Source of the DNA: Phoronis australis
Taxonomy: Eukaryota; Animalia; Phoronida
Direction: 5' to 3'
DNA: 64,000 nt
Assembly (NCBI GenBank): GCA_002633005.1
Contig: NMRA01000171.1
Coordinates: 186,001 to 250,000 of the forward strand
Positions 517 to 37,730 of this stretch are shown here, one piece after another (within the stretch, counting starts at the first letter, position 1; the number at the start of each line of letters is the position of its first letter). The notes beneath the pieces are model-generated. The model was not told where the DNA came from, did not search any database, and saw nothing but the letters and a program-made list of their open reading frames with translations. Both the position numbers and the translations under genes were made by a program.

Positions 517-1418
517 ACAACTGCTTCACAGCTCACGTGACCAAGAAACCAATTTCTCATTGGATATAACAAAGTGGAAATCGTAAATGTCTGAACTTTT
601 CCAGATGAGAAGGGTTTGCCAAATATTTGATTGATCAATATTCAATGTAGGATTGCTCAGTCAAAAGTTTCATAACAAATATTTCTGAAATCTAATCTCT
701 TCAGACGGTTCTGGCCTGTTGAATCGATGTTATTTTAGTTTTATAACTTGTTTCTGGAATCGTTCTTTAAGTAAAAGGCAAATTGTTATTCAGCGACTAG
801 GTTGGTACTGAAAATCTACTGGCGTCTCTGCCGACGACGGCGCCAACTTATCAGCAGTGAAAAGCGAGCGAACGCTGCTCGGACCGTTTTCGTAATATGC
901 TCAAGGCGCCACCACTTCAACAGGTTTGAAGAGCTGCTATGTTTATTTATTCCAATTCGAAATCGACAAAAAAGATCCAAAATACATTGCATAGTATCTG
1001 AAACATGTCAAATTGAGCAAAACAAGCCTTCAGAAGTTGGGCATATTACATTTGACAACCCCCTCCCCCCTCCTCCAACAAAAAGTCCTAGTTTAGTACC
1101 TAACCAGCAAGGCTCGTCTCCTAAAAACTGAAAACTAGCAAGGGTGACAGCTGTTCGACCTGGTGAGGCCCAACATCACCAGTACTGTTCAGTAGCAGCA
1201 CCAACATTCTAAATTATGTCTACGTATTTCAGAGAACAGCACAACAAAAGTGTAATTGGTTCCGGAGGCTATCTCGTGATATTTTCACACCTCCCACAAG
1301 TGCATTTGCGAGAAATGAAGCAAAACCACATTGCAGAATGGTTATTAATGTATCGAGCATTGACGAGCAGTCGGAGTCATGTGCAGAATGCGAGGAGGCG
1401 AAATAGTTGTCAGATTGG

Positions 1419-1425
1419 TATATAA
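1419..1425 (+). promoter_or_regulatory. TATA box of peptide precursor gene copy 1
   Basis: TATATAA about 60 nt upstream of the ATG at 1481; the paralog has TATTTAA at the equivalent position (15232-15238). Confidence 0.6.
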
Positions 1426-1480
1426 GGATAGTTTCTCAAGTGAGTAGCCAAGTACATTCTTTGCTACTGAAGAAACCGTA

Positions 1481-1543
1481 ATGGAGTTCAACTGTTTCCA
1501 AATATTTGCACTGCTGTCTGTTGTAGCTGTCTATGTAACAACG
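1481..1543 (+). CDS. Secreted prepropeptide copy 1, exon 1 (signal peptide MEFNCFQIFALLSVVAVYVTT)
   Basis: ATG at 1481, 21 codons with a hydrophobic core, then a consensus donor ACG|GTAAGT in phase 0; conserved in the paralog. Confidence 0.8.
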
Positions 1544-1660
1544 GTAAGTATTGTTGATGAAGGTGTCGGTTATTATAGAGCTTGAAACGTGTTACACTAT
1601 TCATACTTATGAAATATTTCGTGTTTCCAGATAGCGGGTTTTTGATTTTGGTCAAGCCTA

Positions 1661-1803
1661 TGCATGGGCGGCGCAGCACTGAAAAAAGTGGGGCTATAGC
1701 TCACCAGCCCCTCAGTGGTGAACCACCGATAGACCACAGACGGCGCAGCACTGAAGAAAGTGGGGCTATAGTCCCCCAGCCCCCTATGATGCGTCGCCCA
1801 TGC
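1661..1803. mobile_element. Small MITE in the intron of peptide gene copy 1
   Basis: Inverted ends gcatgggcggcgca / tgcgtcgcccatgc; absent from the paralogous site in copy 2; a shorter relative lies at about 11185-11253. Confidence 0.7.
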
Positions 1804-3919
1804 TAGTCCACTGATATGTCACAATGTCCTTCAGCGTGAGAGGTATGTGGCAGTCTGAAAGATAACACTGCCTCAGTTTTCACCAATATTATAATAACAC
1901 GTGATTGGTTTCATTAATAGAAATAAATCACTGAAACAGGAATATTTCATAAAATACAGCCCCGCATGCATTTTATTTATTTATTTATTTTTTATTGCCA
2001 GACTCGGTGCCTTTTAATTTAGTCGTGGGTTTTGTTGGTAAGCCTGCTAAACCACCAAAATTCAAAGAAAAAATAGTATGTCAAACTGAAGAAGCGTCAT
2101 TTCGGAGCGCGATTCGACTAGATTAGTCAGCTGCGACAAAGTTTGTCTTAGAATGCTCAATAAAAATAAAATGGAAAGGCGCCACAAAAATTGTTCGCAG
2201 AAAGGATATGCAATTTGATTGCATTTCAAAGTTGCATAGAACGTGAAAAACTGACTAAATTGCATTAATCAAAATGGTTCTCTGCCACCGAAACAGAATT
2301 CAATTTGTTCAGCAGGTACTCCTACGATTTGTTCCTAAGATCAAAAAAATTGAGCTTTGCGGCGCATCGTTTTCCGTTTTAACCTAGCGTGCACTAATCG
2401 TAGTTTTCTCATTCATTTTGCTGTACATATGTAAACAGTACCGATTCTCCTGCGTTCTCCACTAGAATAAAAATATACAATTTCATTATTCAGAGTATGA
2501 GTTATAATACGTAGTAAATGAATCTGTTCCCCAGATTAACATTGCCTCATGAGTTCTGCTTTAACGAAAAACTTGAAGCATTTTAAAACTAATGCATACA
2601 CTCATGATGCGACTCAAGTAACTAGTGTAGTGTAGAGCAACGGAATTTGTGAAACAGAATCGAACACATGAGTTAATCGTGTTGTCAGTGTTTGTACATC
2701 GCCTAGCACACTTTCGGAAGCCAAAAGTTGGATATTTAAACTTAGGTAAAAATATAGTGTAAATTATACTTTACTCTTATTTATATTGTTGTTGTGTTTT
2801 ATCTTGTTTCCATTCCAACGTCAGTTTGAAACGATTAACGTGACAAGAACTTATACACCTATAAGCTCCAGATCAGTCATAATTATGGATCATCGAATGA
2901 AACTAAAAAGGTCTAGTCACCCATTCGTGACGTGCAGGTGGCGCAGTGGTTGAATGGTGGCTCGCGGCCGGACTGGAAATCCCGGAATTGAATCGCTCCA
3001 CAGCCGTTACCCTGGAAGCGGTCGTTATGAAGGTATGAGCGGACAATATGAAAAACAACACGTGGACAGATTATGTACATATATCTTCAATGAAGCATAG
3101 CTACTAGAATTCAGGTGACTTTGGCGAAGAATTCCAACTTCACTTTTTGGTTATTGTTAACTTATTCACCGTGTGCGCGATAACAAAAAGTATTTCAACT
3201 GAGTCAAGTGAGTATGAGACAAAGGCTAACGCGAGACTGAGCGAAGCGCGTGACCTGGTGCGTGACACTTGCAAAATAGCATGGGAAGATATCAATTGAA
3301 ATTTGTAAGATTTGTGTCCCTTGGACTTTTTGTTCGTCAACAGGCGTGATTTCACGTAACTTCCTTAAAATGGCCCCCGGTTAGAGAAACTCGAGCGAAA
3401 CGCGAGGTTTTCATGGAGATGTTTAAGTTATTTGTTGACTAAATTGTATCCAGAGTCATGGTATATGTTAATTAAGAATTATGTGATTTACATTGATTAC
3501 ATTGATCAGGTACAAATGTCTCGTTTGAATACGTGTATTTATTTAACCCAGATACAATGCCTCTTGGCGCTTTCTAGGCAATGTATATTCATTGTACTGA
3601 AGATTTCGTAATAAACATTAAAAAATACATGTTAGGCATTGCTGTGCATTTATGCAGCTGTTGATCGCCGGATGTTTGTCTAAATTAAAATTGACGAAGA
3701 CCTGCGATATTGATTGATCGCGGTTAATGTTCTTTGAACCAATTCAACGTTCGTTGTTTATGGTTTGTATTTATATAATGTTCAGGAAACATTCAGAGCA
3801 ACGAATTTCTCCATTTTACATGGATATATTTTTATCAAATAATGGGTTTTGCATAAGCAAACAACAAATTTTTGTTGGAAAAATTGGAACAATAAAAATC
3901 ATATATTGCAGAATATTCA

Positions 3920-4320
3920 AGTTTTCAAAAGTTGAAAACGTAAATTTTGATCACATAGAAACCTTATAGTTTTTAGAAAACTTAAGTTTTGCGAAGAACT
4001 TAAGAAGCTAGCAAAACTTGAGTTTTTATAATTCAAAAAAAAACTTAAGTTTGAATAAGTTAAGTTTTTATAAAAACTTAAACTATTGCTTGAAACCTAA
4101 GGTTTATTTGTGAAAACGTAAATTTTATACTTGAAGAAACTTAAGTTTTCTGAAAAAAATTAAGATCTCTGAAAAACTTAAGATGGTGCTGAAAAATTTA
4201 GTTTTTCACGAAAAACTCGAATTAGAGTTTTTCCTTAAAACTTAAGTTATTTTGCAAAAAAATTAAGTTTCTTCGCCAAAACAATTAAGTTTTCATCGAA
4301 AAACGTATTAAGTTCATTTT
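3920..4320. repeat. Minisatellite of palindromic AAAACTTAAGTTTT units
   Basis: Many degenerate units; paralogous array at about 17880-18295. Confidence 0.8.
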
Positions 4321-4963
4321 TGTCAGGGTACCGTTGTTATATACATGTGCAAGGAATGTCAAAAATACTCACGCTTTAGTACAGCATCAGCAGTATAAAT
4401 TGAGTGACCGTAGATCTCGGACCACCAACCGGCCGAGCGTAGATGGAACTCTTCTCCTGGGCCTACCGTATGGTTACATTCATAGACATCATGAAACCTA
4501 TGGTTACATCAAATGTGAAAGTAGGCGAGTGAGCCGTTGCGTGTCCCTTTACGTACAAGAATAGCAAACGACTCAGTTTTGGAGGATGAAATTTTAGTGT
4601 GTTACTGATACGGGAAACTCAAAAACGTCAAGTGTAGACAGCAAGTATTCTAACCAAGTTAAAAGACAATTCATCGTTTTTGTTTAATTTTTTTTTTAAA
4701 TCATGAAAATTAAAATATGGTTTTAGTCACCCCTTTGTAAACTTAAATCAGTATTGTTGTTCATAAGTCAATAAGCAATGCAGTCGTGATTTGAAGTGTG
4801 GGTATGCTTTTAGGACATCCTGTGTATTGCTGTGAACTCACTTCAGACGTAACGTATCATGAAAGCCTACGATGTGGAGTAAGAAATTTGTTGCAGCAGA
4901 TTTTGCGCGAGAAAGAATGGTAGGCCTAAGTAAGAAATGTAAATCACACTTTTGTTTTTGAAG

Positions 4964-5188
4964 GCAAGTGGAGCAAGCATCAATCGGGAAACAAGGAATG
5001 GTGATGAAGTCAAAGTGGACGCAAAGCTTTTAAAGGCAGTAATGTCTCTGAATGGTAACTCTGGTGCAGATGACATTCCCGAAAGTCCAATGGAAAAGGC
5101 TGCAGATCCTCTTGCTGAGGCCACAAAAAGAGGACCCCAAGACGCCATACCAATTGCATGTTATTTTCACCGTTTGGATTGCAAGTAA
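4964..5188 (+). CDS. Secreted prepropeptide copy 1, exon 2 (pro-region, KR, mature GPQDAIPIACYFHRLDCK); allatostatin-C/somatostatin-like; 95 aa precursor
   Basis: Pyrimidine tract and AG (cacttttgtttttgaag|GCA), phase 0 matching exon 1; acidic pro-region, dibasic KR, two Cys six residues apart, stop; AATAAA at 5398-5403. Confidence 0.8.
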   Translation, partial: ASGASINRETRNGDEVKVDAKLLKAVMSLNGNSGADDIPESPMEKAADPLAEATKRGPQDAIPIACYFHRLDCK

Positions 5189-7849
5189 CAACGATGCATA
5201 TTTCCACTGCACGTGTGATTGGTTTCTTTATCCGTTTGACCCGCTCATAACATGAAGTCGAGTAACTTAGCTACGAAGACTGGTTTCCTCTCCACATTAA
5301 TTGTTTTTTACTACTAATTTCACCTTTATATCGGTCTTGTAACGGCAACACTTTTATAAGCTCACTCTCAGCGTATAGTGTACTGGTGTTACTTCATAAT
5401 AAATGCGCAGTACTTATGCAAATCATATCCTACATAGTATGTACTTGTCTTCGTATTACTCTGCTTTTCACATACTTTGAAGAATTCATTACGTCCAGAA
5501 TAGATACAAGCAAACGGTATGATGCTCACGCGTGTGGTTTAAACTACTGCGCTGCACAGGCTTGACCGACGTCATACTGAATATTTTCATTTTTGTTTTG
5601 TGAGTTTTGCTGAATTTATTGCACAAAGGGGGGAGTGGTAAATAGACACGAACCATCACCCGGAGGGTCTAGAAACGCGAAAGAACAGCCTCGTCATGTA
5701 ATGATGTACAATTATCGATTTTCACACTCAAGTTAACATGTTGGTTTTCAGGCCGAAAAATGAGGTAAAGACTGAGACGTGACCGGTAAGACCGTTAAAT
5801 ACTTACAACTGCCTCGGTCATTATCACTTTGGGGTCTCAAAACCAACACATTGACCGGAGAAAGAAAGATGATAATTGTTATGATTACATCCGCTAAGTA
5901 AGTCATGGAACGAGGTTAATTTATTTAAAAATAAATTCGTGGAATAAAAAATTTCTGAAAATGAAAAACAGGATGCCGGAATTCGATCATAACTTTCCTT
6001 GGGTGAGATGTTTATTTTTGTTATTGGGGAGTTATTAAAGTGTATCGAAGAACAGCGTAAAAACTTGATGAGATGTCTCTTTTAAACATTAATTTTCATT
6101 TCATAAGAAACGCCGACTTTAGAACAGATTCAAGAAAAGCGGGAACGGGCATTTTTTGAGGCCTAGTTTATAAGTAGCGTTGTTATGAAGTCGAACCTTC
6201 CTTGTTATTGAGTTAATGATTTATCTTCGTTGTCTGAATGAATAAACCGTGTCTGCCTTAAACGAAACAGTGAAACACTTTATTCAATGGATGGAATTCA
6301 GATTTTCCACTATTCACAAATAACTGACTAGAACACAAAGCAAAGCAAACAAATGAAAGGTTACCGTTTGTTTCATCACTCACTGAACTGCAATATCCTG
6401 AACAACTAGAATGACCGACCTGACAAATAACAAAAGCACCGTGGAGCGTTGATATTCGTTACAAAAATAATAAATATGACACTAAGTGGCGTAACGAAGG
6501 CAACTCCGTCTGAAATGAGGTAGGAGATGTCTCCCGAGCAGTTAACTTATCTGCCACCTACTGAAGAACTTGGTAGATATTAAAGAGGCCAGGAACGCGA
6601 GAAACAGACTAAATTGCATTATTTAGAATGGTTCTCTGCTACTGAAATAGAATTCAACCTGATCACCAGGTATTTTTACGGTTGTTTGTTAAAAATTTTG
6701 AATTTCTGGTGATGTCAAAGCATTTGTTTTAGTTTCAAATTTCAAAAAAGATCTGTCAACTGCTCGTCACTTCTTCGACTCTCCTTATTTGGTATAGCAA
6801 GACATAAACGTAACACATTTCCCTTGTATGGAAAGTGTGACATTTGACCTTTGATGTAAACAAAACAATGGCGACTTCTAGCAGCAATTGATGTAAGTTC
6901 TAATTGATTGAATTAGTTATAAAAGTATCATAGTATTCAAATACATTCTAAAATGCACTTGGAATTTAATATCTATCTTGTGAGTTGGCTATTTTTCGAA
7001 TGAATGTAATCGCATAGGCGCATTTATCTAGGTGGTAGGGAAATTGGAAACTCGGTGGTGACTAGAATTTTTCATTCGGCTGTATTTCAAAAATCGTGAA
7101 ATGTGGGTTTTTTCTGGATATTCCGCAAGGAAAGTGAATAAATCATGTCTTTATTAGACGTTGCGAGATGGTACTTTCGCCAGAAATTGTTTAAAAGATA
7201 TTTTTGGTGAACTTTCGCGTTCCATGCCTCATTAAGTAAACGCAAAATAAAACTGCTATTATAGAGGATCCCACAGTAGTCAGATATGTTTCAAAACCCA
7301 CGTCATATTACTCTCCTCACAAGAAGCTCTACCAAATCTCAAGAAGATCCATCAAAGAACTTGGCAGATATTGAGCCACACGCAAAAAAATGCCACTAGG
7401 GGCCACAGTTAGTGGTCGAAGCCGTATGAAAACCATAGTCAACCGTACGTGTTGTTCTCACTAGAAGCAAATGCCGATGTTTTGACCAAATCTTCGATCT
7501 GTTTGGCGTGTAAAACACCGTAGGAAACAGAATCAAAGTGTGCAAAAATGTTGGGAAATAATTATTGACTATAGGGTCTACTTCAATCATTGTAGCAGCA
7601 AAAAACATGTGTTCCGTTGAAGAAACTAACTTGTGAATTAGCCCACTAACACATACCACACGTGTCAACTTGTCTCTTATTCAGCCGTTCGTTTTTGCTC
7701 GAGACCCGTGGCAATTCAAGCTGTAGAGCTTTGACGCAAGAAGTACGGTAAATAAGCTAAATTGGTGTTTGTGACAGAAGGCGGGCTCATAACCACACTC
7801 GTTCGATACAATATTCGTCATTTTCCGTGCAAACGTTATTAAGTATGTA

Positions 7850-7912
7850 CTGTTATTAATATTAATATTACTATTGCTATTATCATTATTACTATTATTA
7901 TTACTATTATAC
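7850..7912. repeat. (TAT)n-like microsatellite
   Basis: Imperfect attatt/actatt run. Confidence 0.8.
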
Positions 7913-9736
7913 ATTGTAGTGACCTACACGAAAACGTCACCCGGAAATTGACGAACATCGTGTCGAACGATTTTGTTTATGATCGACACAAGTCCCCAAT
8001 AAACATAAACGATACATGCGTCGCAAGCTGTAACATGTTCGTTGAAGCTCGCTTCCCAATAACCGTGATTTTGTTTCCTGAAATGAAAATAAATTCGTTT
8101 ATGAAACTAAAATTATGCTTGATGTACATATAGTGCCCATGGCAATTTAATGGAAATATGCTATGCTGTTGTTCAGTTTTAATACATAAGTAACTCAGTA
8201 ATGGCGCAAAATGTGATTAATTCATTGCACCACACTTATTTTGTAACCTTTTTCACGTTTTATAAGTAAAAATTTCATTACTGTTCGACACACCACGATG
8301 CGTTCCCTATCGCATAAACAAACACAAATTTGCGTTCCCGATCGCTTATCGTTGCGTTCGATCGCATCTTTCAACAGAAAAGCGTCGAAAAATCAGAAAT
8401 CCTGACAAAACTACAAAAAGCAAGCGTTGTGTTATATTTTCATACATCATTTCTTCATAACTCCATGGTTAAACCTCTACCTGCCCTTCCTCAATGTGTT
8501 ACGCCTTGAACTCATGTCTCTGTTTTCACATTGGAAGTAAATCAAGGAAAGTTCATCAAATTTACTCACCTTGCCTGGCTTCGCTTCTCTCGCCGAATTT
8601 CGTTCTCGATCGCCTTCCGGGCGTTCTCGATCACGGGTTAGCCGGGGTGGAATGGTAAATAATTGACACAGTGAGCAGCATTTATTGATGCTCATCAATC
8701 TGGTTACTTATAATAACATGGTCATGACAAGTGTAATTTATAAACCTCTAAACTCAACATCATTTAAACTTATGGTTTATCTACGTAAACAGAGGAATTG
8801 GTCACATTGGAGTTCAGTTTGTTTGCTTGAAGCGAACACATTGAACAGTATGGCTGTTACACAAAAGTTTTGAATTTGGGCCATTGCCTGAGGTCGAGAC
8901 TGAATCTCCTGCCCTCTTTTTATACAGTAGATTTCTTCTAAATTGATAGTGAGAACTTTAGAAAAATTAACCTCCAAATAACTCTGACTTTGATGAAATA
9001 TCTCAGTCTCACTGGATCCAACTTAGCGAGTTTTACTGTAATTCAATGAGATATCAACTAACACGACACAGCAACCACTGAATCTCAACCCAAAAGCTCC
9101 AGTAGTGCAATAGCTTTAGATGTCTATGACATAGTATAAAAACGCAAAAAGTATGCACATGAGTAGGAATAGGGAAATCTGGAGGGAGTGCTTGTATCAC
9201 TCACTCAAAAATTCCCAAGAAATTTCGAATTCTGTGCAAGTGATTATTCTGTGTACAATTTGGATGATATTGTCGCACGAAAAGACTGACGACCCAAATA
9301 GGTACCTTTTCACCCCCACTTAAGAAAGTCTTACAATACCGATCCACTGTATGGGACAGCAACAGCTTAGTGCAAATCAAATATACCTAAAAAGCTATGC
9401 CAGGGCACAGTATTAGCCAGGATTTTGCCCGTCAGACATTCACACCTTGAGCTGTCAAATGGAATATAACAGACGTAAACATGAAAACAATATCTTTTAA
9501 GTTTTGTTATTTTCTCAGTTATTTTGTTGATGAAATGTGATCTAGTAACAAAATGAATGAAATGTGAAGGTCTGTGACCTTTAAAATCAAATTAGATCTT
9601 TCAGATCTGTACTTTTGAACATTAGCTTTTCCTTTGTCTTTTTGTAACAAGGCTGATAAAAACAACGGAAATCTGTTACCTCTGAACACAACATCTGTAC
9701 GAAACAAAAACATATTAGGCAAGAAGCATAGAACTA

Positions 9737-9922
<186 letters not shown>

Positions 9923-12175
9923 TCACATACTATGTCAACTAGATTTTTCTAATTATCGGTAAGTAAATACACAAGACGGTCACCAATCCATCTGCATTGG
10001 ACACTTTAGCTAGCAAGCTCGATGTGTATGGTGACAGCACATGAACAATGCGGGTAAAAAGTTGGCCAAATTAAGCCAAGATGCTCACTTTTGCAGATTG
10101 CCACACTTCTATTTTGTGGTTGTCTCGCAACAAAACTCAAAACATAGCACACCCAACCAAGCGTAAGTTTTTGTAACCAATATTGACTGACACTACCTTT
10201 TTCAGAATAGCCATTAAAAAGAAACTGATGAATGTCAATCTGAACAATGCCACTCTCCCAGATTTTGTAACAATGAAAAGTCAGACGACCGGGTTTCAAA
10301 ATAGTATGCACGTGACACGCACAGGTGCTACTTGCTTGATTTTTGGTTTTGATGAAGTGGCATTTTGAGAGACAGTGACACACTGTTTCAAAACAAAATT
10401 TTCTCACTGAGAAGTGGTAATAAAATATTAAAAACAAAGTGCAACCACCACTGGCAATTTGTTGTCAACTACTAGCAAACGTGAGAAAAATGTGGATTCG
10501 GAAAATCAGCAAAAACAGAAATTGGCCAACCGAAGGCACTCCTTTTATGCCACCAAAAGTAGACGCGTATAATCACTCTTGGTGGCGGCACATCCTAAGG
10601 TATCATGCACGCCAAAAGATTTTCTGTAAGTAACCCTAGCTAAAACACTCATGAGGAACCCAGTTCAGGTAAAAAAGATAATATCCAATTTGAGTGTTCT
10701 ACGGGTAGCCTTGCTAAAGACTCAACATTGGTATCCTCACCTTTCCAGAGTCACGAATTCACAAAAAAATTGAAAATCCATCGTTGAATGGAAAAGGAGG
10801 CTTGAGATTCAACCTATCACACATCTGGGACAGGATTCTGACTAAAGTTTCCCCTTGTTTTTGCGAAAATTCTCCAATAGCAGAATCAGAGACCGTCGTT
10901 GGCAGAACAAAGTTGGCCAATTGTATGGAAAGTAAGAAATGGTTTTAAAAAGGCGCCACAAGTGTTATGAATGAAGACAGTCTTCTTGTTACGTCTGGTG
11001 AATTTTTGTGATTTTTTAACCTAGTTGTCTAGGTATCTTAATTTAGTATCATTTGTTCGATGCTTTTTGTCAGATTTTTAGATTAGTTAACGGGGCCTTC
11101 GCTAATCTGCTCCAATGGAAAATGAGGCTAAGACGGGAAAAACAACTGTAAGGCCAGTTGCTATTATAAAATCGGTTTCCTCTTCATGAGCGGCGTAGCA
11201 CTGAAATAAGTGGGGGCTATAGCCCCCCCAGCCCCCTATGGTGCGCCGCCCATGCTCTTGTTCTTTATTTGCAATAGAACTGATAAAACTTCGTGGTTAG
11301 TGTCCTCTCCTTGTTGGGGACACATCTGTCAAATTTCAATATCCAGCCAGTGACTTGGTAAATAAATGGAAACATAGAAATAATTTATGATCGACATATG
11401 TCCCGAGTAACTTACTTGCGTCACAAGCTCGCTGTCAGAGATGAAAAGGAGACCAAGGTTGTCGAAATAATAGACTTTAAAGAATAGTATGATATGTAAA
11501 AATAATAGTCTCTGGTAAGATGGGCAATAAAAAATCTTAAAGTGCCATGAAATGTTGAAGACAGCTCATGTTAAAAATATGTTTTAATTTTAAAAACAAA
11601 AAGTGAAAAGTCCAAAAACAACAAAGAGCGTGATAACAAAACCCTTCATGTACTAATTCTCTTATTAATTAACTAATTAGTCATATCAATTACTTTAGGG
11701 TGTAATAGTAACATCTAAAGGGAACCAGACAGGTAAACATTATATCTATGGCTAATTAGCCCAACTCGGGAATAGTTTCAATGATTCAAGGAAAGATAAT
11801 TTTAATTGTTCTAAAGATTGGTAGACAGAGAAAGATTTCAGAACATGGATTCCTCCCAATTGCTGTGAAGAATTGGACCTTTGGACTCTTAACTTTCGGG
11901 TGCCACAAAACATGCAACGTCCAGTTTTTTGTTTTTCTTTTTAGAAGAACGAGAAATTAGTGCTGTGCCGCGTTCGAAATCATAATATAGTACACGAAAA
12001 CGTCAATTTTACCGCGTCAAACTGCGGAATATTTTAATGGTGTAGCGGGGTGGCGGCGGGAAAATCTTCAAAAAAGTGAGACAGTCCATCGCTAGGGCGG
12101 CACAGTTGTCAACTAGTCTTCGCTATCGGTAACACGAAGTGTTGGATTGGACTCTTTTACAAGGTAAACTTTTCA

Positions 12176-12640
12176 TTTTTATGCGCCCACGTCGGCGAGT
12201 GCAGTATGCCGTCATTCGTGTCCGTCCGTCCTACGTCCGCTGCTCTATTCCGGTCTGTCAAAAACCCTTTGATGTATGTTCATGTTCCCGGCCTTTCATG
12301 GATGGGACGGCCTGAGCGAACTTTCGGACGGATTCAACTACCGGTGTGCGACCTAGTATCAATTTTAGATGTCTACGTTTACCTAGCTATCTTCAAAGGT
12401 CCTCAGCAGATTTTCATAAAATTTGGTAAGTAGTCATCTAGTAGCAAGGTGACGCTTCTCTCCCGTTTTCGAATGGACTGGAGGTATGGTATTTTGCACC
12501 TCCTAGTGGCCATTTTCACTGTTTAGGAATCTGTTTTTTGACGTCCGCCCCTCTATCATCCAAACCACTCCAAGGATGATTGTGAAAATTGGCATAAGGC
12601 TAACTCAGCCACGGATTTCTTCATCTTCTCCACGCAGAAG
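12176..12640 (+). mobile_element. Helentron-associated (HINE/DINE-like) element, 5' part
   Basis: TTTTT-ATGCGCCCAC terminus followed by a GTCC microsatellite; same terminus as 20192-21565 in the opposite orientation. Confidence 0.55.
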
Positions 12641-12659
12641 TAGTTGGGACTTGGCGTGC

Positions 12660-12905
12660 CACGGGGCTTGGAATTTTCCTGTTTTAAAATGATTTCTTTT
12701 TTGGTTTCTATTTCATCTTATTTGATTTCCAGTTTCCTCTTTTTTCCTCTTTTTGTTACTATTTTGACTTTATTCATGCAAACATGTTTATTTCAGTTAA
12801 ATTTTACTACAAAAATGTTTTTATCACACAAGCCTATTTATTTGTGGAACGATACGCCACCTGGAAATTTTTCCTCTTTTTTGTCGTTGGACATTCCAAG
12901 CCCTG
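12660..12905. mobile_element. ~245-bp MITE with CAGGGCTTGGAAT-type TIRs (hAT-like)
   Basis: ggggcttggaat ... attccaagccctg flanked by gtgccac direct repeats; relatives at 58733-58984 (full) and about 28003 and 28714 (partial). Confidence 0.7.
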
Positions 12906-13979
12906 GTGCCACCTCCATCATCGATGGGCGACAATTCAAATCTATCGAATCAAGAATACCATTAGGGTGTTTGGTTTGTTTCGTCCAGCACCAGAGGTCG
13001 ATTTGATTGGCCGAGCGAAGTATTCTATGTGCGTTCACCCTACGATAGTCCTTGATACGGTTGCCATAAAGAAAACGGTAATCCATCTGAGTGCAAAAAG
13101 TGGCACAAATTACGTCACCATCATTCCTATTAAGTTCATTATAACTAGTCCTAAGCTTATTTTCAAATGGGACACAGTTAATAACAAGAAACATTATAAT
13201 TGCTTTAGCAGTGAATTGCGACATGTGATGTCTGACAATACTTTCAAGCACTTAGCCTGACAAAGATTTAGGTAAGAATCCTTTGTTTCGATTTTTGGCT
13301 GCCGTTTGTCATAGATTGCCTTAAAATTGTTTGTCGAATACCAATCAAAATCGAAGTCTTCTACAGTATCGCTTGTATACGTGCTGTATCTGTAAAAAGC
13401 AAATCGATGATTTGTTCCTGCTCTGTTAGTCATTTTCTTAATAAGTTATGCATTAAAGTATCCAATGAGGTGTTCGACCTGATGACGCTCAAGGGACTTC
13501 TGATCAACCATTTCTAGCGTTGCTGGGGCATCCTTTACGCGCAACATTGAAACTTGTGCACATCATACGAGAAACTATTGCCACATTGCCATTTTCACAT
13601 GTCATCGTAGATCATAGAGTAATGTTGCACATACCAGATAAATTGGTTACTGAAGAAACTGCGAAATGTGAATAGGTTTGTGGATCGTGAGACGAAGTGC
13701 GACTTTTCATTACAGACCTATGGAGTCGTGTGAATAAAAATTGACACACGTACTAATGTACACCTGGCACACGAAAACAATAAAACACGAAATAAATTTA
13801 CAGGTGTATGTTGAGAGAATCATGACTCTTCTTCGTCCCTTTCTAAAATTATGAGGGTTTTTGTCCAAATATTTGTGTTCTTCCGTTTCTATGGGAATGC
13901 GCGTTTAGCGGAGACGTTTGGATGTTCGGTTTAGTGCAGGATTGCTCAGCCAAAAGTGTCATTACATAATTATTTCTGT

Positions 13980-14970
13980 GATCTAATCTCTTCAGACGGC
14001 TCCGGCCTGCTGAATCGATGTTATTTTGGTTTCATAACTTGTTTCTGGCATCATTACTCAAGTAATAGGCATTTTTTAGTTAGCGACTAGGTTGCGTACG
14101 TCTATGCCAACGACGACGCAAACTTATCAGCAGTGAAAAGCGTTTTCGTAATATACTCAGTGAACCACCACTTCCACCGGTTTGAGGAGCTGCTATGTTT
14201 ATTAATTCCATTTCGAAAACATCCCTGATACATTATATTGTATCTGAAACATGCAAAATTGAGCAAAATAAGCCTTCAGAAAAAGATAACATTCCAAAAA
14301 TCACTCGTCCGCTTCCCCTTCGTAGTCCAACTTGGTTCAAAGGATTTCACGAAGTCATTGGGAAAATAATTGACCCCCCCAATAAAAAGTCCTAGTTTCG
14401 TACCTAAGTGACAAGGTTTGTCTCCTGAAAACTGAACACTAGCACTGAAAATTAGCCGGGTGACAGTTGTTCGGNGATCTAATCTCTTCAGACGGCTCCG
14501 GCCTGCTGAATCGATGTTATTTTGGTTTCGTAACTTGTTTCTGGCATCATTACTCAAGTAATAGGCATTTTTTAGTTAGCGACTAGGTTGCGTACGTCTA
14601 TGCCAACGACGACGCAAACTTATCAGCAGTGAAAAGCGTTTTCGTAATATACTCAGTGAACCACCACTTCCACCGGTTTGGGGAGCTGCTATGTTTATTA
14701 ATTCCATTTCGAAAACATCCCTGATACATTATATTGTATCTGAAACATGCAAAATTGAGCAAAATAAGCCTTCAGAAAAAGATAACATTCCAAAAAATCA
14801 CTCGTCCGCTTCCCCTTCGTAGTCCAACTTGGTTCAAAGGATTTCACGAAGTCATTGGGAAAATAATTGACCCCCCCAATAAAAAGTCCTAGTTTCGTAC
14901 CTAAGTGACAAGGTTTGTCTCCTGAAAACTGAACACTAGCACTGAAAATTAGCCGGGTGACAGTTGTTCG
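13980..14970. repeat. ~495-bp near-identical tandem duplication joined at an ambiguous base
   Basis: gatctaatctcttcagacgg...gacagttgttcgg occurs twice; the ORF track shows X at the junction (~14474). Confidence 0.85.
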
Positions 14971-15231
14971 GCCTGGTGACGCCCAACACCACCAGTACTG
15001 TTAAGTAGCACCACCAACATTCTAAATGGTGTCTATGTATAGCAGAAAGCAACACAACAAAAGAGTAATTGGTTACGGTGGCTGTGTTGCGATGTTTTCA
15101 CACCTCCCACAAGCGCATCTTAGAGAAATGAAGCAAAACCAAATTGCGTCAAGGTTATTAATGTATCCGGCATTGACGGTTAGCCAGAGTCATGTGCAGA
15201 TTGCGTGGAGGCGAAATAGTCGTCAGATAAG

Positions 15232-15258
15232 TATTTAAGGATGGTTTCTCAAGTCAGT
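15232..15258 (+). promoter_or_regulatory. TATA-like box and Initiator-like TCAGT of peptide precursor gene copy 2
   Basis: TATTTAA at 15232-15238 and TCAGT at 15254-15258, upstream of the ATG at 15294. Confidence 0.5.
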
Positions 15259-15293
15259 CGCCAAGTTCACTCTTTGCTACTGAAGAAACCGTA

Positions 15294-15356
15294 ATGGCAT
15301 TCAACTGTTTCCAAATATTTGCACTGCTGACTGTTGTAGCTGTCTACGTAATAACG
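15294..15356 (+). CDS. Secreted prepropeptide copy 2, exon 1 (signal peptide MAFNCFQIFALLTVVAVYVIT)
   Basis: ATG at 15294, 21 codons, donor ACG|GTAAGT; 58 of 63 nt identical to copy 1. Confidence 0.8.
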
Positions 15357-17065
15357 GTAAGTATTGTTGATGAAGGTGTCGGTTATTATAGAGCTTGAAA
15401 CGTGTTACACTATTCATACTTTGATTTTGGTCAAGCCTATGTAACACTATTGATATGTCACAATGTCATTCACAGCGAGAAGTATGTGGCAGTCTCAAAG
15501 ATAACGCTGCCTCAATTTTCACCAATTTTATAACATGTGAACGTTTTCATCAATGGAAATAAATCACCGAAACAGGAACATTTCGTAAACTACAGCAGTG
15601 CATTGCCAGATTCTTCAATAAAATAGAGAGTTTGGTGCCATTTAATTTAGTCGTGGGTTTCGTTGGTAGGCCTGCTAAACCACCACAAATTCAAAAAGTT
15701 GTTGCAAAAAAATCGGATGTCAAAATGAAGAAGCGTAATTTCGGAGCGCGATTCGACTGTAATATATTAGTTAGCTGTGACAAAGTTTTGTCTTAGAATG
15801 TTCAATAAAAATAATGTGAAAAGGCGTCTCGAAAAAACATTTGTTGGCAGAAAGGACATGCAATTTGAGTGCATTTTGTTGCATAGAACGTGGAAAACAG
15901 ACAAAATGGTATTAATCAAAATTGTTCTCTGCCACCGAAACAAAATTCAACCTGTTCACCAGGTATTCCCATGATTTGTTCCTTAGATCAAAAGATCATG
16001 CTTGCGGCGCACTATTTTCCGTTTTAACCTAGCGTGCACTAATCGTACATAAGTAAACAGTACCGATTCCCGTGCGTCTTCCGTTAGAACAAAAAATTCG
16101 ACACATGAGCATTATTCAGAGTATGAGTTATGATACGTTGGAAATGAATCTGTGTCCCAAATTAACATTGTCTCATGAGTTCTGCTTCAACGACAAGTAT
16201 GAAGCATTTCAAAACTAACATATACTCACACGATGAGACTCGGGTAACGAGTGTAGTGTTGAGCAACGGATTTTGCGAAACATAGCCGACTGAACGCATG
16301 AGTTATCCGCATTCTCAGTATTTGTTCGTCGCCTCGCATGCACTATTCATAGACTCAGTTTCGGAAGCCAAAAGTTGGATATTTAAACTTAGGTAAAAAG
16401 ATGAAATAAGTGTAAATTTTAGTTTATTCTTATTTATACTGTTGTTGTATTTTATTTTGTTTCCATGCTAAGGTCAGTTTGAAACGATTAACGCGACAAG
16501 AACTTATACACCTATAAGCTCCAGGTCAGTCATAATTATGGATCATCGAATGAAATTAAAAAATGTCTAGTCGCCTATTCGAATTCGGTGACGTGCTGGT
16601 GGCGCAGGGGTTAAGTGATGGCTGGCGGCTGGACAGGAAGATCCAGGGATCATGAAAAAATTTACAAAGCCCCGTTAACCTAGAAGCGGTCATTATGATT
16701 GAAGGTATGAGCAGACGATATGGAATATAACACGTGGACAGACTATGTATTTATAAATGCATCAGCCGACAGTATTTCTGAGTCAATAATTCTCCCTATC
16801 GACCGTTCATACTTTCATATTGACTGCTGCTATGGTAGCACCATTAAATCCCATTAAAAACTTTTGGCATATCATCATGATGGGTTCTTCCTGATCACAA
16901 TCCACTACTTCGCCACAGCTCCACCGGCACGTCACAGAAGAGGGAAGTCTCTTTTATGTTTTTTATGTCATCAGGATTCTGATAATATATATATTTTTTC
17001 CAATAACCGTAAGTAAAACAAATAGATGTTGCAATGCCGTGCAGTTACCGAAGAATAAAAATATA

Positions 17066-17250
17066 AAATAGCAAAACTAGTAAAACTAAAATGACGAGCG
17101 TCAGCACTAAAATATATTAAAATATTCCCACGTATCGAGCGATGCGCTCTTTCTCAAGGGTGTGCTACGGACATCGCTCGATACGTGGGGATATTTTAAT
17201 ATATTTTAGTACCGACGCTCGTCATTTTTGTTTTACTAATTTTACTATTT
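17066..17250. repeat. Long inverted repeat / foldback (about 79-bp arms, 27-nt spacer)
   Basis: Arm 17066-17144 is the near-perfect reverse complement of 17172-17250. Confidence 0.85.
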
Positions 17251-17479
17251 CGTAAATAAACCACTCGGTGAATACAAATTTCCATCGAGGCATCAGTTCT
17301 CTCCACGCTAAAAAGGCCTGGATCGCGAAAAACAGATTGAATTGAACAATTCAAAGTGGTTCTCTGCCACTGAAACAGAATTCAACCTATTCACCCGACG
17401 TATTCTTATGATTTTGAATTTCTGTTGATGTCAAAGCATTTTTATTTTACTTTCAAATTTCAAAATACTATCATTAGAG

Positions 17480-17695
17480 AAAGCAAAAAAACACTCTCCC
17501 CATGAGATCAGGCCAAAAATTTCTGAGTCTTGTCAGATTGGGGATGAGACACCTCTTTCAAATTTTAACGGGTCACAGTAACCTAGCGCGACACAGACAC
17601 ATTACTGGGCATATGGAGGGCCCAGTGTGTCCTGAGCGTGGCACTTACGTTCAAACCCTGAACACCTGGAACAGTCTTGCCCAGCTTTTTTTCGT
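17480..17695 (+). mobile_element. Non-LTR retrotransposon 3' fragment (C-terminal Zn-knuckle region, I/R1/Loa-like)
   Basis: LFQILTGHSNLARHRHITGH...VCP, then frameshifted PEHLEQSCPAF, matching the LTGH...C..C...EH....CP motif. Confidence 0.6.
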
Positions 17696-17879
17696 TGTTT
17701 TGTGATTTGTATTTATATAAATGTTAAGGAAACATTCAAAACAACGAATTTGTCCATTTTACATGGGTATATTTTTTCATTAAATGATAAGTTTTGCATA
17801 AGCAAACAAGAAATTTTTGTTTGAAAAATTGAGAAAACTTTGAACACTGAAAATACAATATCACATAACATTCAAATTT

Positions 17880-18295
17880 TCAAAACTTGAAAACTTGAAT
17901 TTTGATCATGTAGAAACCTTATAGTTTTCAAAAAACTTAAGTTTTACATAAATGAAAAACTTTTAAGTTTTGTGAAAAACTTAAGAAATCAAGAAAACTT
18001 TATTTCTAAAATTCGAAGAACCCTATTTTCGATAAGTTTTCATAAAAACTTAAGTTATTGCTTGAAACTTAAGGTTTATTATACTTGAAAAAACTTAAGT
18101 TTACTGAAAAACTTAAGTTCTCTGAAAATCTTAGGTTTTTGACAAAAAAATGTAAGTTTAAAAACTTAAATTTCTTTTAAAAACAAAAGTTTTTCGTAAT
18201 AGTTTAAGTTTTTCCTAAAAAACTAAGTTATTTTCCAAAACCTTAAGTTTCTCTGACAAAAACTTAGGTTTTCATCGAAAAACTTGAGTTCATTT
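17880..18295. repeat. Minisatellite of palindromic AAAACTTAAGTTTT units (copy 2)
   Basis: Same motif and intronic position as 3920-4320. Confidence 0.8.
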
Positions 18296-18907
18296 TTATG
18301 GGTATTGTTGTTATATACATGAACAAGGAATGCCAAAAAAGTACTTACATTTTCGTACAGCATCAGGAGTATAAATTCACTTCCCTTAGACCTAGGACCA
18401 CAAATCGGCCAAGCCTGGGCCTACCGTATGGTTATAAAAGAATCTATGGTTACATCAAATCTGAAAGTAGGCGCGTCAGCCGTATCGTGTTCTTTATGCA
18501 CAAGAATAGCAAACGACTGAGTTTTGGAGGATGAAATTTTATTGTGTTACTGTTACTGGAAACTCAAAAACGTAGAGAGTAGGCAGCAAATATTCTAACC
18601 AAGTTAAAAGACAATGCATTGTTTCCGTTTAAACTTTTTAAATATTTTAAAGGCTTTAAATTAAAATTTCGTTTTTGGTCACCCCTTTGTACGTTTAAAC
18701 CAGTTGTTCATAAGTCAATAAGCAATGCAGCCATTGAGATTTGAAGTGCACGTTTTTCTGACGTCCTGTGTACTGCTGTGAATTTGCTTAAGGTAATGTT
18801 GCCTATACCCTGAGACGTGACGTAAGAAATTCGTTGCGGCAGTTTTTTGTGATAATAAGAATGGTAGGCCTAAGTAATAAATGTAAATCACACTTTTGTT
18901 TTTGAAG

Positions 18908-19150
18908 GCAAGTGGAGCGAGCATCAATCGGGAAACAAGGAATGGTGATGAAGTCAAAGAGGACTCAAAGGTTAAAGAATTCGCAGAGCTTTTAAAGGCA
19001 ATAATGTCTCTTTATGGTAACTCTGGCGCAGATGACATTCCCGAAAGTCCAATGGAAACTGTTGCAGATCCTCTTGCTGAGGCCACAAAAAGAGGACGCC
19101 AAGACCTCAGAGCAATTGGATGTTATCTTCATCCGTTAGATTGCATGTAA
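18908..19150 (+). CDS. Secreted prepropeptide copy 2, exon 2 (pro-region, KR, mature GRQDLRAIGCYLHPLDCM); allatostatin-C/somatostatin-like; 101 aa precursor
   Basis: Same acceptor as copy 1; frame intact despite an in-frame 18-nt indel; CYLHPLDCM resembles the AST-C core CYFNPISCF. Confidence 0.8.
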   Translation, partial: ASGASINRETRNGDEVKEDSKVKEFAELLKAIMSLYGNSGADDIPESPMETVADPLAEATKRGRQDLRAIGCYLHPLDCM

Positions 19151-20191
19151 CAACGATGCATATTTCCTCCAATACACGCATGGTGGGTTTCTCCATCCGT
19201 TTGACCCGCTCATAGAATGACGTCTGACTAACTTAGCAACGAAAGTTGGCCCTCCCAACAAGAGTACAGACTGGTTCCCTCTCCACGTTAATTGTTCTTT
19301 ACTACTAATTTCTCTTTAATATCGGTCTTGTAATGGCAACACTTTATAAGCTCACTCTCAGTGTATACTGTACTGGTGTTACTTCATAGTAAATGCGCAG
19401 CACTTATGCAAACCTTATTCTACATAGTGTATTCTTGTCTTCGTATTATACTGCTTATCACATACTTTCAATAATTCATTATGTTCAGGATAGTTACAAA
19501 CAAACGCTATTTTATCCTCCAATCATAAAACCTTAATGGTAAATAACTAATGGGGTAAGACGATCACGCGCGTGGTTCGAACCACTGCGCTGCACAGGCT
19601 TGATACTGAATATCATTTTTTGTTGTGTGAGTTTTGCAGAATTTTCTGCACAACAGGGGGAGGGGGTAAACTGATTATTCCATGCCCTCGGTACTTATTT
19701 CCCGCTTCTAGACCACAAGAGGGATTTGGAGGAATCATCGGGAACTAACTGCCTTATAACGTAATGATGACCAATTCTACTGATTTTCATGCTCAAGTCA
19801 ACATCTTACAGTCCTAAAAATGAGATATTAACTGAGGCATGACCGGGGTCCTTTTCATCTCCGGTAACGAGCTTGTGACGCACGTATTTTACTCGAGGCA
19901 TATGCTGAACACACGTATTTTACTCGAGGCATATGCTGAACATAAATATATTTTCTAAAAGTGAAAAGCCTGTAGAATTTGTTTTTATTATTTTTTTACC
20001 AGTCTACCAATAATCAAAGGACGATGTCTTTTTAGTAAAATTTAGTAAAAACAACGTTATCAAGATTTGTTGAAAATGAAATCTCAACAACACTGGAGCT
20101 TTCTAAATTTTTGTTTCCTCGTTTTATGCAACTTTTGAGCTCTTTCATTAAAATCATCAGAGTGTAATTGTTCTTTGATAGTCCCTCTTAC

Positions 20192-23666: not shown

Positions 23667-23819
23667 TCACTTGAGGAAGCCGTTCTTCTTGAAGTCAGCC
23701 ATGACAATCTCCACCTGTTGGGGCATCAGTGGCTGAAGTGGCATTCTCAGTGGGCCACCATAGAACCCAAACCATTCCATGGCTTGCTTTAATGCAGGCA
23801 CACCAAACCGCCGTGTTAC
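23667..23819 (-). CDS. HOGA1: HOGA1 exon 7 (VTRRFGVPALKQAMEWFGFYGGPLRMPLQPL...NGFLK, stop)
   Basis: tttcag| ... TGA; 153 nt; total CDS 1017 nt, 338 aa with a single exon 4. Confidence 0.95.
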   Translation of the reverse strand, partial: VTRRFGVPALKQAMEWFGFYGGPLRMPLQPLMPQQVEIVMADFKKNGFLK

Positions 23820-24928
23820 CTGAAATCAGAATGTTGGCAGATTTGTTTATGATTCACAATGCTTTAAAGCTATGAGTTTAATCCCATCAATTAAAACAAA
23901 TTTTGATTTATGCCACTTGTCTTTGCAAAACTGGACTCGACTCATTTCATTTTCAGATAGCAAAACATTTTAAGAGTTGTTATCTGAAATTGAAGTTTTG
24001 CTATTGCTTGAAACTTGGTTCAAAAGTTGGCTTGACATGCCAATTTAATTTAAAATGCCCACAGCAATAGGTCTGGCCAAATAGGCTGGTTCTTTGGCCA
24101 AACAATAGATCGAGTACTACTAGCTTAACTCGTTATCGCATATGTCGTCAGCCTGCACAAGTCGTTATTTTTTCTTGGTTCCGATTACACGGCCATTCAT
24201 TTATATGTAAAAGCCTTGTGGTTAAGCTGTCGTTTCTAAGTCATCATCTTCGCCTGACTCGTTGCTCCAAAACATCACATCGACAAAAAAAATAACCAAA
24301 GTTATTTTAATAAAGAGACAATATCTCCTTAAATTCATAAATGAGTGAATTATCCCAAACTTAAGTCGAGAATTCAACATAACCAGATTAAAAATTATGC
24401 AAATGACTATACTGACAAATCCCGTAATTTGTCAAGTTTCAAACTGTGGTTTACCAATTGTATTCTAAACCTTTCTACCTCAATAGCCATAAAAAAATTG
24501 AGAATTAACAACCAGGCATCCATGCTTACCAACACCAACTGAATTATTCTCACGAGCTTGGATTTTCCCTTCTCCTACCAAACAGTTTTCTTGCTTCACA
24601 AGTAAAGCTCGTGATCTCACTAACCTACATTCGCAACTTCAGCGATCCATCAGTTACTTCGCTTAAAAGTAACTAAAATTGCCAGTTTTGTTTTTCAGAG
24701 AAAATCGATCATGCAACAAAAATCCAATTTTCATCTGTTGTTTTCAACAGCTGTAAAATACAAACTGTGTTGAGAATGATGTATAATTTCCATTTTTATT
24801 TTGTTGCACAGTTTGCCGAAATAAATCCCACTAGTCTGCCTTACAACGTGATAAATAGCTGGAAAATTAGAGTTGGTATGGTTGAATGTGACCGCCAGGT
24901 TTGAAAAAGTTCTGAAAGGTCGACTCAC

Positions 24929-25062
24929 CGCACCATTAGGAGAGACAAGCCTCTGCTGCAACAGCCTGGCCTCCTCTGACTGTCCCTTTAGGAACAACTG
25001 CTGGAGCTGACACACCTCCTGACCCAGAACATTAGCTAGGGCACACACACCTCCAACACAGC
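24929..25062 (-). CDS. HOGA1: HOGA1 exon 6 ([14 protein letters not shown]...[11 protein letters not shown])
   Basis: atgcag| ... |gtgagt; 134 nt. Confidence 0.93.
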
Positions 25063-25393
25063 CTGCATGGATAGAGCTGGAGTCAGTGAAAGGTTGAACA
25101 GTGAAATCTCAACTATTGCAAAGAAAAATGTTACCCTTTTTCATATGTCAGAAGCTTCTAATGTACCATTAATGTGCAACATAGAAAAACATCAACAAGT
25201 CACCAGAGAATATTAATGCCAATACATGACTCAGTCAAGCAGTCATCAATGAGCAACTGTAGTATAAAACGTCAATGTACAAACCCAGTCACAAACCATT
25301 CACAACAATGATCTACTTTACAACTAACAAGTCACCATAGTCTAGTCATAGCAAGTATAATCAACAAGTCAATACTGGTCATGGCTAACTTAC

Positions 25394-25490
25394 CTACTGT
25401 CAACGCAGGATAAAGAAAACTTGCAGAGCCAGCCAAGATTTGGAAGCCAGAATCTTGAGTGTGGTACACCAAATTGGCAAGTTTAGCTAC
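25394..25490 (-). CDS. HOGA1: HOGA1 exon 5 (VAKLANLVYHTQDSGFQILAGSASFLYPALTV)
   Basis: ctgtag| ... |gtaagt; 97 nt. Confidence 0.93.
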
Positions 25491-26571
25491 CTACAGCAAC
25501 ACCAGTCAAATAAATAGAGTCTATATTCAGACGAATTTCATAAGACATAGGTGGAGTTCTTAAAATAAATTGAACATGACCGGCAGTGGCCGTAATCATT
25601 CTCACAATGATGTTAAGGTGAACTTGAAGACACATCATGAGTTCTCGCCTTGAATCACATAATATCATGTCATAATATGGCCCAAGGTGGCAACTGCAAA
25701 TTCACTTAACCACCATTCTGAGGATGACCGCAACCACTGAAGGCTGAAAACATCCAATTTATTGTAAGTACTCCATTATGTCTCATGAAGTTTACCTGAT
25801 ATATGACTCACCAATCGGATGAAAATATTTAGTGAGAGTCAATATTGTATAGACAATGTACTATTCTATCCAGCATCATCAGTATACTTTAGAAGACAAA
25901 ACAAAATCACAAAACTAATGCTTTGAATACAAAGCATTTCATATTATAATCTAAACTGTGGATCTTATCGTATACATGGGCATCATAAAATGCTTATCAT
26001 TAACATGGTAGAGTTCAAGTTTGAGCATGTTTGTGACAAGGGTGAAGACTGACGCAAAGTCCAAAGTACACATGGGTCCCTCGGGCCAACAAACGTATTG
26101 AAGATCTTTCTGATGCGCACCAGTTAAAGCAAACTTTTATCCCAAGCTACATTGGATGGATAAAATACAGTACAAGCCAGAATTATTCAGACAAAATGAC
26201 GCCAGGGCAGAAGCCAGATTCATCGTCACTGTATGTGACTGATAATGAATGGAAATTTAGAGGAAAATTAGAAACTAAGGTGAATATGAAATTGTAGAAT
26301 TTTGTTGTCAATATAGTTGTAACGGTATGAGAAATTGTTGCTACTAACAAAATTGACTGTAACGGTGAAAAATATTACTTTATTGGATTACTTTTGTCTT
26401 GCACTATACATACTTGAGATGTTACTGTAGTCATATTTTTGAAATGATGCATTGCTTTGTTTTCACCTGAAACTGGTTTCCACAATTAAGTCAGGGTTCA
26501 CATACTTTCCAGTCCTATGGAGGCACATGATTTTGCCCAATAACTTTGAACACTGGCATGGTATTCACATT

Positions 26572-26642
26572 GCCAGCCTGATAGGATTTGAACCCCCATA
26601 CCAAGATAACAAAGGGAAGACCTCAACCACTACACTACCACC
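26572..26642 (-). mobile_element. tRNA-derived SINE head (degenerate)
   Basis: Minus strand reads TGGTAGTGTAGTGG (A-box-like) ... GGTTCAAATCC (B box); no complete cloverleaf. Confidence 0.5.
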
Positions 26643-27246
26643 TCATCCTTAGAAATCCCGGAATAACACATATTTTAGTTTTCATTATCATATCCAGACA
26701 ATAGTGTTGGTGCTGCCACCTTTTGTGTTTCCATGACATTACATCGCAGGCACATGCAGATGTACTAGCTGTCATAGCCAACACAGACCCTTATAAGGCA
26801 AAATTCGGCTGAAACAAGTGAAAATACAGAATAACACAATTGGCACTCTTTATCACTATGTTCCGGCTAAATACCTAGTGACAACATGATTTACTACAAC
26901 ACAGTCGAAAACAAATCAGACAAAACATCGTTTTCTCTCCAATACAGCCAATTCAGTTATACAGCAGAAATGATTGCCAATAATTGTAATGAGAGCACAT
27001 AAACACTGTAGGTGTCTCAGATTTTTTGTAAGCTCCCAGTATGTCTCATGTACTGGCAGGTGCAGATTGTAATTTAATCGTGGTACATTTCAAGTACTCT
27101 CGAAGTGGCTATAACCACGACTACCATCACAAAAACCAACTTTCAATTCAGACCACTTTCTGTTACGAAATTGGTCTAAAACTGTTCCTCAGTCAAATTA
27201 GATGTAGTTCCTGGGCTTGGACAGAACTAATAGGTGATTATTGCTC

Positions 27247-37682: not shown

Positions 37683-37730
37683 GTACAGTAGGTGACATTG
37701 CTGTTTGTGCCAAGCAGGTTTTTATATTAA

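Follow-up and report, generated by a model that had tools for sequence, protein, structure and literature searches.

Two tandemly duplicated two-exon genes were found in a 64-kb stretch of animal DNA from contig NMRA01000171.1 (hereafter the window, in whose coordinates all positions are given). Each encodes a small precursor that ends in a single 18-residue peptide (18-mer) with two cysteines in C-x6-C spacing. The two genes, copy 1 and copy 2, are both on the + strand, and their structure and strand, the splicing and sample-restricted expression of copy 1 and the tandem duplication were observed directly. From their resemblance to known peptides, we consider that the encoded products may be divergent, endogenous derivatives of allatostatin-C (AstC) acting on a G protein-coupled receptor (GPCR) of the AstC/somatostatin type, with a probability of roughly 0.45. 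They were not classified as AstC members because defining positions among those that we compared depart from those of the family.

Copy 1 follows a TATA box (TATATAAG, 1419..1426), and RNA coverage starts in the 1354-1507 bin, which at this binned resolution approximately fits a transcription start near 1450. Its first coding exon (1481..1543) comprises 21 codons for a hydrophobic leader with a best 11-residue hydropathy of 2.64, and is separated by a phase-0 intron of 3420 nt containing dispersed repeats (1544..4963) from a second coding exon (4964..5188) that encodes the end of the leader, RETR, an acidic pro-region with a predicted helix, KR, the mature peptide and the stop codon. KR, a predicted convertase site, is located at 5126..5131 and the predicted mature 18-mer at 5132..5185 (cysteines encoded at 5159 and 5180; calculated monoisotopic mass of 2043.97 in the oxidised form), followed by an AATAAA poly(A) signal (5398..5403), with RNA depth falling off in the 5358-5511 bin. 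Copy 2 has a weakened TATA box (TATTTAAG, 15232..15239), a first coding exon for a hydrophobic leader (15294..15356; hydropathy 2.77), a phase-0 intron of 3551 nt identified from the sequence and its paralogy with copy 1 (15357..18907), and a second coding exon with six extra pro-region codons (18908..19150). Its predicted mature 18-mer is at 19094..19147 (cysteines encoded at 19121 and 19142; calculated mass of 2057.96 in the oxidised form) and is followed by a degenerate poly(A) signal, AGTAAA (19388..19393), compared with AATAAA in copy 1. In both copies, exon 1 ends at GTAAGT, the intron is of the GT..AG type with an AAG acceptor, and exon 2 is open to the stop codon, giving precursors of 95 and 101 aa, respectively. 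Both gene models are thus real as structures in the sequence, and the exon coordinates, GTAAGT ends, phase-0 introns of about 3.5 kb, precursor lengths, KR sites and 18-mers of the original prediction all hold. A loose KR..C-x6-C..stop pattern occurred by chance 0.93 times per resampled 64-kb window and is hence weak alone; a tight AstC-like pattern, written after the peptides were seen, had two occurrences in the real window compared with none in 200 resampled ones.

Four RNA runs with the same species label (X1-X4) were mapped to the window, with copy-2 reads placed at 85% likeness. The copy-1 junction 1543/4964 was crossed, always on the sense strand, by 131 reads in X1, 129 reads in X2 and a single X4 contig, and by no reads in X3. 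Cover of the copy-1 exons was likewise one-stranded and sense, with a depth of 94-121 over exon 2 in X1 and X2, and dropped beyond the AATAAA at 5398. Copy-1 expression was sample-restricted because its level, roughly summed from depths, was ∼52 and ∼59 reads per kilobase per million (RPKM) in X1 and X2, respectively, versus 0.7 in X3. Reads were also placed across the copy-2 junction 15356/18908 (68 in X1 and 76 in X2), but these were rejected as evidence of copy-2 splicing because they carried copy-1 letters at the diagnostic exon-1 sites: 63 of 63 and 70 of 70 at 15298-15299, and 71 of 71 and 77 of 77 at 15347 and 15352. In exon 2, copy-2 letters were carried by 3 of 77 reads at 18919, 3 of 33 at 18960 and 3 of 68 at 19060 in X2, and by no reads at these three sites in X1, leaving about three reads of its own for copy 2, none of them with copy-2 letters at the listed exon-1 sites. 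Copy 2 was therefore nearly silent in the four runs examined. Of the two splice junctions in the original prediction, that of copy 1 was confirmed by spliced, stranded reads in X1 and X2 and by the X4 contig, while that of copy 2 received no reads with copy-2 letters at the diagnostic exon-1 sites listed, and the view that both genes are active was not borne out.

The spliced X4 contig (1483-1542 joined to 4963-5078) has 7 differences from copy 1 over its 176 letters and the copy-2 letter at 15330; it may stem from a divergent allele or from a third paralogue. At position 5115, a T was present in 127 of 128 X1 reads and 136 of 138 X2 reads in place of the C of the window; this T, likely an allele, replaces Ala by Val immediately ahead of the KR region. 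Two-stranded reads on the dispersed repeats of the copy-1 intron (1663-1802 and 3050-3660) came from elsewhere in the genome.

Both precursors share the order of a hydrophobic leader, RETR at residues 29-32 (an RxxR site), an acidic pro-region, KR and a single C-terminal 18-mer with C-x6-C. By simple rules, a signal peptide was predicted for each from the leader hydropathy and from small-residue -3/-1 sites at 22-26, and the pro-region has 10 (copy 1) or 13 (copy 2) Asp and Glu residues versus six Lys and Arg. The 18-mers each have a net charge of 0. The loop of copy 1 opens with ACYF, and the loop tails are H-R-L-D-C-K in copy 1 and H-P-L-D-C-M in copy 2; because only this single last residue, with no Gly, stands between the last Cys and the stop codon, the C-terminus has no amide donor. 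An AlphaFold model of the two second exons, led by that of copy 2, was of too low confidence to be searched for similar folds (mean predicted local distance difference test score (pLDDT) of 58.7; predicted template modelling score (pTM) of 0.24), and its sole part above a pLDDT of 70 was a pro-region helix at residues 20-37 (best block 75).

From established precursor biology, the signal peptide would be cleaved near residue 24, a furin-type protease would cut at RETR and a convertase would cut at KR, releasing an 18-mer with a free, non-amidated C-terminus that is closed by a Cys-Cys ring. The 95-residue product of copy 1 would in this way be secreted and processed into an 18-residue disulfide-ringed peptide. 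This peptide resembles members of the AstC family and probably descends from its AstC2/AstCC type; the same resemblance suggests that it could serve the animal itself as a signal on a GPCR of the AstC/somatostatin type, where, by analogy with known AstC systems, its action would be inhibitory and of the Gi/o type.

Protostome AstC is defined by a six-residue loop and a single C-terminal peptide copy (PMC9048919 and PMC8786951). Both copies have the C-x6-C spacing and the single C-terminal peptide after a basic site. Their intron is of phase 0, as borne out by the copy-1 reads, and would fit the N-terminal phase-0 intron of somatostatin (SS)/AstC genes (PMC7536072), although it follows codon 21, within the leader. 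For comparison, we read by eye the loops of 90 entries (including 6 repeats, and mostly insect near-duplicates) from part 7 of the PMC8557429 supplement and parts 9-10 of the PMC9048919 supplement. With three reference loops picked post hoc, the BLOSUM62 scores of the two loops were matched by random loops with P values of 0.0018 (copy 1) and 0.0009 (copy 2), and the best-scoring reference for copy 2 was an insect loop.

The closest known systems were found outside the insects as well. In nemertean AstC2 (loop CFFHAVSCY), His occupies loop position 3 in all nine entries (PMC8557429 supplement part 7), and AstC2 is among the precursors with peptides confirmed by mass spectrometry (PMC8557429). 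These precursors resemble the present ones in a length of ∼95-98 aa, an early basic site, a leucine-rich stretch in the middle, KR and a terminal C-x6-C starting with aromatic-F-H. They differ in the loop end, which is A-V/I-S-C-Y followed by G-R-K and near invariant in the nine entries, compared with R/P-L-D-C-K/M and a stop codon here, where the two paralogues differ from each other at 8 of 18 residues. In the 98-aa Lineus lacteus AstC2 precursor, inspected by eye, a basic site is located at 29-30 and the cysteines at 87 and 94, with a leucine-rich stretch in the middle; copy 1 likewise has RETR at 29-32 and cysteines at 87 and 94. The predicted pro-region helix sits where AstC2 and AstCC precursors carry the leucine-rich stretch. 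Octopus AstC, AVITACYFQAVSCY, has been deorphanised with receptor activation (bioRxiv 10.64898/2026.02.18.706622). Cephalopod AstC (ACYFQAVSCY) shares with copy 1 the ACYF, a third loop residue other than Asn, and a free C-terminus one residue past the Cys; its loop continues as Q-A-V-S-C-Y rather than H-R-L-D-C-K. The arthropod AST-C/AST-CC/AST-CCC peptides share the C-Y-F start with copy 1, a Pro as fourth loop residue with copy 2 and, in AstCC, the leucine-rich pro-region stretch (PMC9048919), whereas their Asn and their I/V-S/T-C-F end are lacking in both copies. Ecdysozoan genes have an extra phase-2 intron (PMC9048919), while neither copy has a second coding intron. In molluscs, each species surveyed had one AstC-like precursor, with a single tandem exception encoding identical peptides (PMC8514136), which makes a divergent tandem pair unusual by comparison with this survey. 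Somatostatin, SSRP and consomatins have a single C-terminal disulfide peptide and a phase-0 intron in common with the present genes, and consomatins also a conserved pro-region with a variable mature part, but they are distinguished by a WK motif and by a loop of 4 or 10-15 residues instead of 6 (PMC9048919).

The peptides had originally been described as AST-C-like, with N-P-I-S replaced by H-P/R-L-D. The likeness stands insofar as the loops are nearer to AstC than expected by chance. The third loop residue, His, is not peculiar to the pair because all nine nemertean AstC2 precursors have it too, and membership of the family was not assigned. The nearest kin are lophotrochozoan AstC2, cephalopod AstC and arthropod AstCC, and not just insect PISCF. 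Neither 18-mer has a Trp, so the somatostatin/SSRP branch, as defined in PMC9048919, was excluded for want of a WK motif, in agreement with the loop of 6, and the somatostatin-like label was dropped. Excitatory peptides and CCHamides have a C-x6-C with an amidated C-terminal tail; this class was rejected, both peptides having one residue and then a stop after the last Cys, with no Gly donor. The tail DREP type was also rejected: its C-terminal peptide has 53 residues and an N-terminal disulfide followed by a helix (PMC10501145), compared with an 18-mer with a terminal loop here.

Several observations weigh against a divergent AstC signal. In the reference set, 85 of 85 complete loops have S, T or A at loop position 6 and F or Y after the last Cys (our own count rather than a published rule), while both copies have Asp at position 6 followed by Lys or Met after the Cys. 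The AstC motif is FxP, or FxA/V/L/I in other members (PMC8851493), compared with F-H-R in copy 1 and L-H-P in copy 2. Loop position 3, which is Asn in the published AstC loops with the known exceptions H, Q and W, is His in both copies. With broad sets of residues allowed at each position, copy 1 agreed at 4 of 7 (P = 0.076) and copy 2 at 5 of 7 (P = 0.012), and the three reference loops scored above were chosen after the peptides had been seen. The shared SS/AstC intron is placed in the pro-region in PMC9048919, compared with the leader end here. Exon-2 queries returned no precursor-level relative among 1.84 billion representatives, 0 of 2 candidates in another search, no usable match in the Atlas, and no Pfam family at an E-value of 0.1 (DUF4484 was sub-threshold at 0.11). 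The mature peptide, moreover, is the least conserved part of the precursor, with 8 of 18 residues differing between copies compared with 9 of 77 elsewhere (Fisher p = 0.003), a pattern attributed to toxins rather than hormones in PMC9048919; a conserved signal and pro-region with a fast-evolving mature part is reported for consomatins and other doppelganger toxins (PMC9048919 and PMC10501145). If the genes instead belonged to an unrelated, lineage-specific family of secreted peptides that acts on another receptor or target and arrived by convergence at a disulfide loop of six residues at the C-terminus, the lack of a sequence match in any database searched and the two differing positions fixed in AstC would be expected, and the loop likeness does rest on only three to five residues. 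We regard such convergence as somewhat unlikely: loop size, loop score, precursor length, site spacing, pro-region helix and intron phase jointly agree with AstC2/AstCC, and neuropeptide precursors often escape BLAST across phyla (PMC9048919).

The divergence between copies bears on further explanations. Amino acid differences number 3 of 21 in the leader, 6 of 56 in the pro-region and 8 of 18 in the mature peptide, whose loops have two Cys, Tyr, His, Leu and Asp in common. Compared with a non-coding divergence of 0.12-0.19 (five blocks), the nonsynonymous divergence (pN) of the leader and pro-region was lower (0.05-0.06; P at most 0.0008), while that of the mature peptide, at 0.21, did not exceed it significantly (P = 0.11-0.50). 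The copies show 0 of 65 differences at the beginning of the intron, and gene conversion may therefore contribute to the contrast with the conserved leader. A further proposal is that the peptides are AstC-derived but repurposed, being exported for defence, prey handling, as a pheromone or as a gamete signal to act on the receptors of another animal, with a canonical AstC gene elsewhere. The toxin-like pattern of conservation, the tandem duplication, the on/off expression of copy 1 across RNA samples and the loss of otherwise fixed AstC residues would suit such export; set against them, in addition to the mature pN just given and the possible gene conversion, are a family of only two copies, both within the window, and a level of ∼50-60 RPKM that is modest relative to gland toxins at 10-100,000 transcripts per million (PMC10501145), and we judge repurposing unlikely. 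For copy 2 alone, and compatibly with the other explanations, the mature divergence could reflect relaxed selection on a decaying duplicate, which is doubtful but a real prospect: its ∼3 own reads in one run compare with 130 copy-1 junction reads, and its TATA box and poly(A) signal are weaker, but its frame, splice sites, KR and both cysteines are intact after ∼15% non-coding divergence, its one indel is in frame, and the silence was seen in four RNA runs only. A comparison of just two sequences does not allow diversifying selection to be told apart from relaxation in copy 2, which is nearly silent.

The duplicated unit (646..5642 on the + strand versus 13935-19670) is 75-86% identical in self-BLAST blocks, with unrelated flanks. 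The window contains single-N scaffold joins at 14475, 28240 and 48904 with near-identical overlaps of 502, 726 and 1246 nt, which mimic tandem repeats, and the first of these lies between the copies. These overlaps raise the prospect that the pair is an artefact, either two haplotypes of one gene placed side by side in the assembly or a transposon frame. This is very improbable. The join at 14475 is an overlap of ∼500 nt with 99% identity, and the second unit already begins within the left contig (13935-14281, matching 646-1035), which favours a tandem duplicate over a second haplotype, as the differing flanks and the 12-19% non-coding difference between copies also argue. The transposon case, named at the outset as one that would undo the gene pair, was largely refuted for copy 1 by spliced, stranded reads on its exons, and Pfam gave no transposon family. 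Of the lineage-specific expansion originally proposed, the tandem duplication of the unit was seen, whereas the word expansion rests on two copies within the window.

A divergent AstC ligand would be of interest where AstC-type receptors lack a known precursor. Four phoronid transcriptomes yielded receptors for AstC without a precursor for it (PMC8557429), and AstC is drawn as lost in phoronids in a figure legend of PMC9048919; a gap of this kind is also reported for hemichordates and xenacoelomorphs (PMC8851493). Should the host belong to one of these lineages, the two genes might be the missing ligands, with the S-C-aromatic end changed to D-C-K/M and the gene duplicated in tandem, a combined scenario that we consider quite unlikely as a whole. 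In a phoronid or hemichordate host, both peptides would be candidates for the AstC ligand reported missing, and a divergent peptide of this type is what searches for AstC precursors would miss. If the 18-mers activate AstC-type receptors, S/T/A and the terminal aromatic residue would be dispensable, redrawing the motif by which AstC is called present or lost; if they are exported, they would be candidate AstC-derived mimics. In either case, the window provides a previously unannotated, expressed peptide gene and two concrete candidate ligands that would be inexpensive to make.

Other searches gave little to compare. The PDB search with exon 2 returned only two chance matches to designed helical repeats (E-values of 0.09 and 0.13), and Rfam had 0 matches in the window. 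The loop motifs of either peptide were not found in print in the literature searched, and the precursor motifs were absent from the PMC8557429 supplement, except for one match in a receptor. No title in the hemichordate literature from 2022 on, surveyed by title only, named such a precursor, and the parts of PMC11087482 and PMC3510462 covered held no residue-level result on AstC structure-activity.

The neighbours of the two copies are ordinary animal genes, including HOGA1, C2H2 zinc-finger exons, the end of MMS19 and an RRM exon. The RRM exon (9737-9922, - strand; Pfam RRM_1, E-value of 0.002) lies between the copies and resembles SRSF10. It ends at a minor-intron-type donor, ATATCCTT, at 9777, and its frame slips one base just before, so that it may be a pseudo-exon or contain a homopolymer error of the assembly. 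A simple word search in 5650-13900 revealed no additional exons. A HOGA1-like gene with seven exons and open cores occupies 23673-33038 (- strand), one of its exons appearing twice (27743 and 28454 regions) because the assembled pieces joined by the single N at 28240 overlap. The top named matches of a HOGA1 exon were bivalves, a nemertean and annelids among 120 of 221 matches listed, a similarity that leans towards lophotrochozoans. In a quick tree of 49 rows, HOGA1 joined Lingula with a Shimodaira-Hasegawa-like approximate likelihood ratio test (SH-aLRT) value of 80, which is weak support, and in a careful tree that kept 23 rows after removal of 26, most of them distant or redundant, it was unplaced, outside the vertebrate, anthozoan and clam clades; the rows of both trees included no named echinoderm, hemichordate, amphioxus or phoronid. 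A sea-anemone-type toxin precursor was set aside because HOGA1 lies outside the anthozoan clade.

The C-terminal exon of MMS19 (63191-63352, - strand) best matched the hemichordate Ptychodera flava at 64% (4 matches among 23 candidates). HOGA1 and MMS19 are also near neighbours in human, a possible old microsynteny. Exons of a C2H2 zinc-finger gene extend over 35389-39719 (+ strand), with a THAP-domain stretch among them (37966-38187). Two longer frames on the - strand (45391-46413 and 52157-52798), for which Pfam gave no family, look by eye like decayed pol and gag pieces of retrotransposons.

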